Of a DNA stretch of 64,000 nt, positions 54,693-54,770 are shown piece after piece. Location of the stretch: NCBI RefSeq assembly GCF_044647545.1, contig NZ_CP172818.1. One strand, given 5' to 3'. Numbering within the stretch: the first letter of the stretch is position 1; the number at the start of each line of letters is the position of its first letter. A model generated the notes under the pieces. The model ran no database searches. It was not told the origin of the DNA and saw only the letters and a program-made list of their open reading frames with translations. Origin of the DNA: Escherichia coli. Its GTDB lineage: Bacteria; Pseudomonadota; Gammaproteobacteria; Enterobacterales; Enterobacteriaceae. The translations under genes and the position numbers were made by a program.

Positions 54693-54770
54693 TCCAATCC
54701 TCCCCTCTCCTCACGGAGAGGGTTTGGGTGAGGGAAAAGCCTCACCCCAGCCCTCTCGGGTAAAAACATT
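54693..54770. repeat. Double-hairpin palindromic intergenic element between mtlA and mtlD
   Basis: cctctcctcacggagagg and gggtgagggaaaagcctcaccc inverted repeats. Confidence 0.5.

Follow-up and report, generated by a model that had tools for sequence, protein, structure and literature searches.

Background

What are the two GC-rich inverted repeats that lie between mtlA and mtlD in Escherichia coli, and what, if anything, do they contribute to the operon that carries them? We addressed this question in a 64,000-nt stretch of E. coli DNA (contig NZ_CP172818.1), which is called the window throughout this report. A first-pass annotation of the window had described the repeats as a double-hairpin palindromic element that fills the spacer, likely a REP-type partial terminator or an RNA stabilizer that could set the relative expression of mtlA and mtlD. 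The mtlA, mtlD and mtlR genes are taken here to form one mtlADR transcript, an operon structure that we adopt from established knowledge.

The locus and its spacer

The genes on both sides had been named correctly in the first-pass annotation (Table 1). The mtlA stop codon, TAA, occupies positions 54690-54692, and the sequence from this codon to the mtlD start codon reads TAA tccaatcctc CCCTCTCC tcac GGAGAGGG ttt GGGTGAGGG aaaag CCTCACCC cag CCCTCTC GGG taaaaacattgatGAAGGttaatact ATG. Of 5426 complete E. coli genomes, 5405 match a 701-nt segment around the site, with an identity of up to 99.9%. The closest genome, FDAARGOS_497, shows a sole mismatch over the 701 nt; it lies at 54702, 1 base 5' of the first stem, where that genome has A and the window has C. 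O157:H7 likewise has A at position 54702.

The mtlD frame is open through the short spacer back to an ATG within mtlA, giving an ORF of 443 aa (54604-55935). We rejected a coding role for this ORF across the spacer and regard the mtlD frame as open by chance in the short allele. A protein database holds a 443-aa 'mannitol-1-phosphate 5-dehydrogenase' of E. coli B354 (P0002), which is probably a start-codon mis-annotation, because the mtlD frame is open across the short spacer.

Table 1. Genes, spacer and sequence blocks of the mtlA-mtlD region, in window coordinates
Feature	Coordinates	Strand	Remarks
mtlA (PTS mannitol transporter IICBA)	52779..54692	+	637-aa ORF; named mtlA in matching E. coli genomes
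mtlA-mtlD spacer, short allele	54693..54786	+	94 bp here, compared with 229 bp in K-12
C-rich arm a'1, CCCTCTCC	54703..54710	+	pairs with block a to form hairpin 1; begins 10 nt past the mtlA stop
G-rich block a, GGAGAGGG	54715..54722	+	alternative partners: a'1 upstream or a'2 downstream
G-rich block b, GGGTGAGGG	54726..54734	+	5' arm of hairpin 2; third strand in the DNA-triplex model of the family (PMC4666352)
C-rich block b', CCTCACCC	54740..54747	+	3' arm of hairpin 2; part of the inverted, truncated second unit
C-rich block a'2, CCCTCTC	54751..54757	+	partner of block a when the alternative long hairpin (54716-54757) forms
Conserved tail, GGGTAAAAACATTGATGAAGGTTAATACT	54758..54786	+	A/U-rich, predicted single-stranded; begins with GGG (54758-54760)
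mtlD (mannitol-1-phosphate 5-dehydrogenase)	54787..55935	+	downstream gene; ATG at 54787
mtlR	55935-56522		3' of mtlD

Structure of the element

The element proper spans 55 bp (54703-54757). It had been said to fill the spacer and was assigned the span 54693-54770. It is indeed present, but it takes up little over half of the 94 bp, and the end at 54770 falls inside the conserved A/U-rich tail, past the end of the element itself at 54757. This tail contains the Shine-Dalgarno-like sequence of mtlD, GAAGG (54774-54778).

Both of the adjacent inverted repeats that were originally noticed are genuine, and both are perfect 8-bp pairings: CCCTCTCC/GGAGAGGG (54703-54722), in which the loop tcac separates a'1 from block a, and GGGTGAGG/CCTCACCC (54726-54747). 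A repeat search returned the 8-nt perfect pair 54703-10/54715-22 and also an 18-nt pair, 54716-33/54740-57, that is 89% complementary. The latter corresponds to a long hairpin that was absent from the first-pass annotation, the arms of which are GAGAGGG-ttt-GGGTGAGG and CCTCACCC-cag-CCCTCTC.

Folding predictions agree with the repeats. The + strand RNA is predicted to form the two adjacent hairpins, with an MFE of -39.9 kcal/mol and z = -3.66 (none of 200 shuffles was as good), and the - strand RNA is predicted to form the long hairpin; the corresponding z for single-stranded DNA is -4.5. When the alternatives are compared in E. coli, their fold energies are -32.0 kcal/mol for the two hairpins and -30.7 kcal/mol for the long hairpin. 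The sequence GGAGAGGGNNNGGGTGAGG, with up to 2 mismatches, occurs at 2 sites in the window, both at the element and inverted with respect to each other, and at none in 100 shuffles. Adjacent perfect 8-bp hairpins number 2 in the window, compared with a mean of 0.02 in shuffles. The paired hairpins at mtlA-mtlD are therefore real and beyond chance. The second adjacent pair in the window, at 63795-63840, lies within the coding sequence of a 339-aa ORF on the - strand (62853-63872), which we take to be gpsA, and is probably incidental.

Family assignment

The element is well supported as a degenerate inverted pair of units of the family called BoxC, PIT, TMECO or HPG1-2. Its core, GGAGAGGGTTtGGGTGAGGGAAAAG, resembles CCCTCGCCCCTCTGGGGAGAGGGTTAGGGTGAGGGGAAAAG upstream of fabI in K-12, and a 19-nt core is common to both with one mismatch. 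In PMC4666352 (Table 1), the fabI copy is listed as TMECO no. 9, and the median E. coli genome contains it at 19 places. The mtl copy, used as a 63-nt BLAST query against E. coli genomes, hit its own locus only (median 1 place), this query being short and diverged for the size of the database. According to Holder et al. (2015), TMECO is the same repeat as BoxC, known from the 1990s, and as Hoyne and Maher's PIT elements; the consensus that they gave is 5'-CCCTCNCCC N3-6 GGGNGAGGG N3 GGGNGAGGG[G/T/C/-], of which MG1655 carries 23 strict copies (PMC4666352). BoxC has been recorded as approximately 56 bp in length, with 32-33 copies in K-12.

The strict TMECO consensus does not match the window copy (CCCTCTCC tcac GGAGAGGG ttt GGGTGAGGG a), even when 3 substitutions are allowed. 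The copy departs from the consensus in having arms of 8 bp instead of 9, only GG as its first G-tract, and an A after the last block. In the orthologous spacers of Klebsiella, Enterobacter, Cedecea and a metagenome contig (L197), the consensus is matched exactly at the same position, and the canonical unit is then followed by the same CCTCACCCcagCCCTCTCggg. Because these orthologs match the consensus exactly, the E. coli copy is a decayed family member by descent.

The family itself is thus already known under four names, and the mtl copy is a degenerate member outside the two published lists compared here. It is absent from the 23-copy TMECO list (Holder 2015, PMC4666352) and from the HPG1/2 list (Kaplan 2016, PMC5100583), and the supplements of both papers have no entry at the K-12 coordinates of the spacer. 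The RepRanger supplements do not mention mtl, and an Rfam covariance-model scan of positions 52000-57500 gave no match at the locus with E <= 1.

Within the pair, the left unit is complete, with its C-rich arm, G-rich arm and second G-rich block; the link reads TTT here and TTA in Salmonella and L197. The right unit, on the opposite strand, is truncated: GGGTGAGG and GAGAGGG are kept, with links of the CTG/CCA type on the - strand, and its own hairpin is lost. This anatomy fits the 'palindrome effect', in which inverted pairs are partly deleted and a stem-loop is left over (Holder et al., PMC4666352).

Several features are shared with BoxC/PIT/TMECO copies in general: the three-block unit (C-rich arm, G-rich arm, 3-nt link and second G-rich block), a length of 55 bp compared with about 56 bp for BoxC, variable flanks, and an intergenic location, here bounded by the mtlA stop (54692) and the mtlD start (54787). 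Family copies are frequently paired as a type A (TTA) unit inverted against a type B (CCG) unit, and the TTA-like and CCG/CTG-like units at mtl may correspond to such a pair. The mtl element departs from the family in its truncated right unit and in being orthologously fixed across genera, unlike many family copies. With HPG1 and HPG2 (PMC5100583), it shares the sequence family GGGAGAGGGTTAGGGTGAGGG and a C-rich 5' flank that permits a hairpin; however, these classes require four tracts of at least 3 G with short loops, and the window copy has only three (GG AGA GGG TTT GGG TGA GGG). It also resembles REPIN doublets, in that two inverted copies of a short repeat give a long hairpin, and differs from them in that its right half is truncated. 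Full symmetric doublets, in the order hairpin plus GGGTGAGGG, spacer, CCCTCACCC plus hairpin, occur in environmental contigs that include L182, L188, L229 and L243.

Relation to REP elements and terminators

The designation "REP-type" does not hold. The REP consensus (GCCGGATGCGGCG... / GCCTGATGCGACGC...) occurs at five sites in the window, none of which is in 54693-54786, and the core of the element is that of BoxC/PIT/TMECO. In K-12, among other E. coli strains, REP/BIME units do adjoin the element, with REP pairs present only in the longer alleles, and K-12-type REP neighbors may have been the source of the association. The resemblance to REP/BIME elements extends to a GC-rich extragenic palindrome in a transcribed spacer that could plausibly act as an exonuclease barrier, whereas the sequence family is a different one and the mtl spacer lacks the REP consensus. 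We know of no REP-associated or RAYT-type transposase for the BoxC/TMECO family. Canonical REPs elsewhere in the window are located at 57427-57467, 33648-33727, 14372 and 61924; those at 33648/33714 form an inverted, BIME-like pair, and a match to naRNA4 in Rfam that stays below threshold (27.3 bits, compared with a gathering score of 59.5) traces to the REP at 57444.

The reading as a partial terminator is not supported either. According to this explanation, the hairpins or a G-quadruplex would stop RNA polymerase, and expression of mtlD and mtlR would be lowered relative to mtlA. In its favor, the transcribed spacer contains very stable GC-rich stems, and Kaplan et al. proposed this role for intra-operon copies (PMC5100583). 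However, no U-run follows either stem (the sequence after the stems is TTTGGG and CAGCCC / GGGTAAAAAC), and positions 54300-55100 contain no terminator-like site on either strand. The element has a GC-rich stem-loop 3' of a gene in common with Rho-independent terminators, but it is without their U-tract and lies inside an operon. As for the family, the work of Hoyne & Maher (2002), in the form in which it is cited in PMC4666352, found that PIT elements acted neither as promoters nor as terminators and left RNA polymerase unaffected.

Two related candidates bear on the same question. An internal promoter was rejected, as the spacer has no promoter-like site; mtlD and mtlR would depend on read-through because no promoter-like site lies downstream, and this need for read-through speaks against termination ahead of them. 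A conserved G-quadruplex was rejected as well. Its first tract in E. coli is GG, and the tracts are broken in Salmonella, Phytobacter and Superficieibacter, so that a canonical G-quadruplex is not conserved at mtl. We therefore consider termination or attenuation by the element very improbable.

Retention among Enterobacteriaceae

Orthologous mtlA-mtlD spacers were obtained through MtlD homologs, with the exception of L197, which came from a metagenome scan. The resulting 13 spacers represent E. coli (two alleles), Salmonella, Citrobacter, Klebsiella, Enterobacter, Siccibacter, Cronobacter, Cedecea, Phytobacter, Entomohabitans, Superficieibacter and the L197 contig. The element is found in all 13, and its 3' end is in every case some 30 nt from the mtlD ATG. 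Every one of these spacers also contains an equivalent of a'1, of 6-9 bp. Within E. coli, BLAST detects the element in 5404 of 5426 genomes (99.6%). Two more draft contigs, L254 (Escherichia, 94% MtlD identity) and L256 (Buttiauxella), end inside the spacer with its 3' part kept; such breaks would be expected if repeats in the spacer defeat short-read assembly.

Across all orthologs, the 38 nt of the repeat blocks are 76-100% identical to those of E. coli, and mtlD is 52-61% identical at third codon positions and 79-84% identical overall. In Salmonella, Citrobacter, Klebsiella, Enterobacter and Phytobacter, the blocks together with the 32-nt tail are the same as in E. coli at 66-68 of 70-71 positions, and third codon positions of mtlD in these five genera are 56-61% identical. 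The tail alone has 30-31 identical nucleotides among 32-33 aligned positions in the same genera.

Pairing is conserved as well. In the long hairpin, 97% of 202 cells are paired in the 13 orthologs, compared with 43-65% in slid controls. The b:b' helix is 99% paired, with compensatory changes in Cronobacter, and the a:a'2 helix is 94.5% paired. Changes on both sides occur in 3 pairs, giving a score that was matched by only 2 of 500 shuffles. The clearest covariation is that of Cronobacter, in which GGGTGAGGG is replaced by GGGAAAGGG and CCCTCACCC by CCCTTTCCC. We regard the covariation as supportive rather than decisive, because it comes from essentially one lineage, Cronobacter. The two folds are within about 4 kcal/mol of each other in 11 of the 13 orthologs; the two-hairpin fold is favored by 9-12 kcal/mol in Cedecea and Entomohabitans.

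This comparison of spacers shows that the sampled Enterobacteriaceae inherited the inverted pair, already in place before mtlD, from their common ancestor and have kept it since. Orthologous fixation before mtlD across enterobacterial genera, including Salmonella, may be a new observation, and conservation of this depth argues for some constraint on the element. Conservation of the repeat blocks is, by itself, weak evidence of a function specific to this locus, because it is a property of the family across phyla. The family occurs in more than 260 genomes, and neither a general role in gene expression nor a positional bias relative to ORFs was found for it (Holder et al., PMC4666352). When we scanned genome contigs with GAGAGGGNNNGGGTGAGG, the motif was found in MAGs assigned to several distant phyla, with no E. 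coli among the matches listed. The metagenome scan returned mostly environmental contigs, with 32-73% GC, and L197 as the one orthologous mtl spacer. In the MAGs of distant phyla and in environmental contigs, the motif and its upstream complementary arm are nearly unchanged.

Such near-uniformity is what would be seen if the element were a functionless relic, that is, a decayed selfish or structural repeat kept uniform by mutation bias, gene conversion or a constraint at the DNA level, followed by a tail that is the ribosome-binding region of mtlD. The degenerate state of the E. coli and Salmonella copies points the same way, as does the lack of functional correlation among genes flanking the family (Holder et al., PMC4666352). 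However, other copies are easily lost. Thirteen percent of K-12 TMECO sites were not found in other strains (Holder et al., PMC4666352). In K-12, an inverted canonical TMECO/BoxC pair (nos. 17 and 18, 3781028-3781156) lies between lldD and trmL, whereas the lldD-trmL spacer of the window (61378-61426, approximately 50 bp) contains no TMECO units, a presence/absence polymorphism 6.6 kb from the mtl copy. By contrast, the mtl copy is retained in every sampled orthologous spacer and in nearly all E. coli genomes, and even in Salmonella, where the motif is reported to be poorly represented (PMC5100583). Moreover, both competing arms and the truncated shape have been preserved. A relic is thus a somewhat unlikely explanation, though one to keep in view.

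A variable 5' flank

The constancy of the element is set beside a flank that varies. When 60 of the 5405 E. coli records were sampled systematically, the K-12 type of spacer, with 228-229 bp, accounted for 37 genomes, the 94-bp spacer of the window for 10, and a spacer of 318-319 bp for 9; lengths of 364, 419 and 520 bp were each seen once, and one genome gave a partial match only. At least six spacer lengths therefore exist in E. coli, and all of the length variation is 5' of the element. What the longer alleles have in addition is a further CCCTCTCC hairpin together with one or more REP/BIME units. The short allele appears to have arisen by deletion between the two CCCTCTCC direct repeats.

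Other genera have different inserts at the same spot, including extra TM units detected by the consensus scan. Additional inserts 5' of the element were recognized by eye, and we take these to be REP-like and ERIC-like. Among them is a sequence of about 125 nt that we presume to be related to ERIC/IRU (...GTGAATCCCCAGGAGCGTACATAAGTACGTGACTGGGGTGAGCG...), present in Salmonella (L248, 981-1115) and Phytobacter (L257, 976-1100). Different repeat families thus seem to insert at one spot upstream of the BoxC pair. In Cedecea neteri (L255, 1042-1076), the spacer contains a second TMECO unit with the exact consensus, which is inverted and precedes the conserved one.

TM loci are associated with intergenic rearrangement more often than are controls (Holder et al., PMC4666352), and the hypervariable 5' spacer fits repeat-associated rearrangement nearby. 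One explanation would place the effect in the DNA: a non-B structure, either an intrastrand purine-motif triplex or a cruciform, would stall replication or repair and destabilize neighboring DNA, and any influence on expression would be secondary. When block b (54726-54733) is folded back antiparallel to block a (54715-54722), a series of 8 consecutive triads allowed by the family model (G·G:C, A·A:T, T·A:T) can be read from the sequence, and TMECO forms a triplex in vitro (Holder et al., PMC4666352). The length alleles, which differ immediately 5' of the element, the varied inserts of other genera and the apparent deletion between direct repeats are all consistent with local instability. However, Holder et al. 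observed no triplex in double-stranded DNA or in vivo, and purine-motif triplexes do not form in RNA (PMC4666352). Instability would also account for the variable flank and not for the stable keeping of the element. On balance, we find it improbable that a DNA structure of this kind is the main explanation.

Proposed role

The reading that we prefer is that the element is an ancestral BoxC-family pair acting as an intercistronic stem-loop barrier in mRNA. We assign this account as a whole a probability of roughly 55%; within it, the identity of the element is near certain, and the mechanism is tentative. The element would be transcribed as part of the mtlADR mRNA and would fold either as two hairpins or as a single long one, each with roughly -31 to -32 kcal/mol, without terminating transcription. 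The stem-loop would then halt exonucleases that attack the mtlA segment from its 3' end, and/or cleavage in the A/U-rich tail would provide the mtlD-mtlR segment with a protective stem-loop at its 5' end. Either way, the mtlA and mtlD cistrons would be uncoupled in stability or translation.

Intercistronic REPs stabilize upstream mRNA, as in malE-malF. The part of the first-pass annotation that proposed an RNA stabilizer setting the mtlA:mtlD ratio is, on this model, plausible: the element has the trait typical of that class, a stable stem-loop in a co-transcribed spacer (z = -3.66), and its structure is kept in the 13 orthologs. The E. coli 3'-end table of Adams 2021 has no entry in the spacer, for cells that were not grown on mannitol and in which the operon is taken to have been uninduced.

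A further effect may apply to some alleles. REP stem-loops located less than 16 nt past a stop codon lower translation of the upstream gene, according to work cited in section 8 of PMC12306157. In the short allele, the first stem begins 10 nt past the mtlA stop and would be within range of this effect. In some genera, 8-15 nt separate the mtlA stop from the first stem; where other repeats have been inserted, the gap exceeds 100 nt. Because the distance varies in this way, an effect on mtlA translation, suggested by analogy with REPs, would be at most an allele-specific side effect.

A bolder proposal is that the mtl copy is an exapted BoxC/TM pair, in which the two-state fold and the invariant A/U-rich tail would together constitute a cis-module for mtlD processing or translation that was fixed before the genera diverged. 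We offer this as speculation and judge it unlikely.

Conclusions

The annotation of the mtlA-mtlD spacer can be revised: it contains a known repeat, which is neither a terminator nor a REP. BoxC/PIT/TMECO elements have been known since the 1990s and are almost unchanged in hundreds of bacterial genomes, without an accepted function; a triplex, a G-quadruplex, a hairpin and an 'instability generator' have been proposed for them so far. Most family copies come and go between strains. The mtl copy, located at one orthologous position in a well-understood inducible operon, is therefore a convenient natural test case, in which natural alleles of 94 to 520 bp, as well as canonical and decayed versions of the element, allow MtlA:MtlD output to be compared. 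If the proposed exaptation is true, it would represent the first locus-specific selected role for any copy of this widespread, functionally unexplained family.
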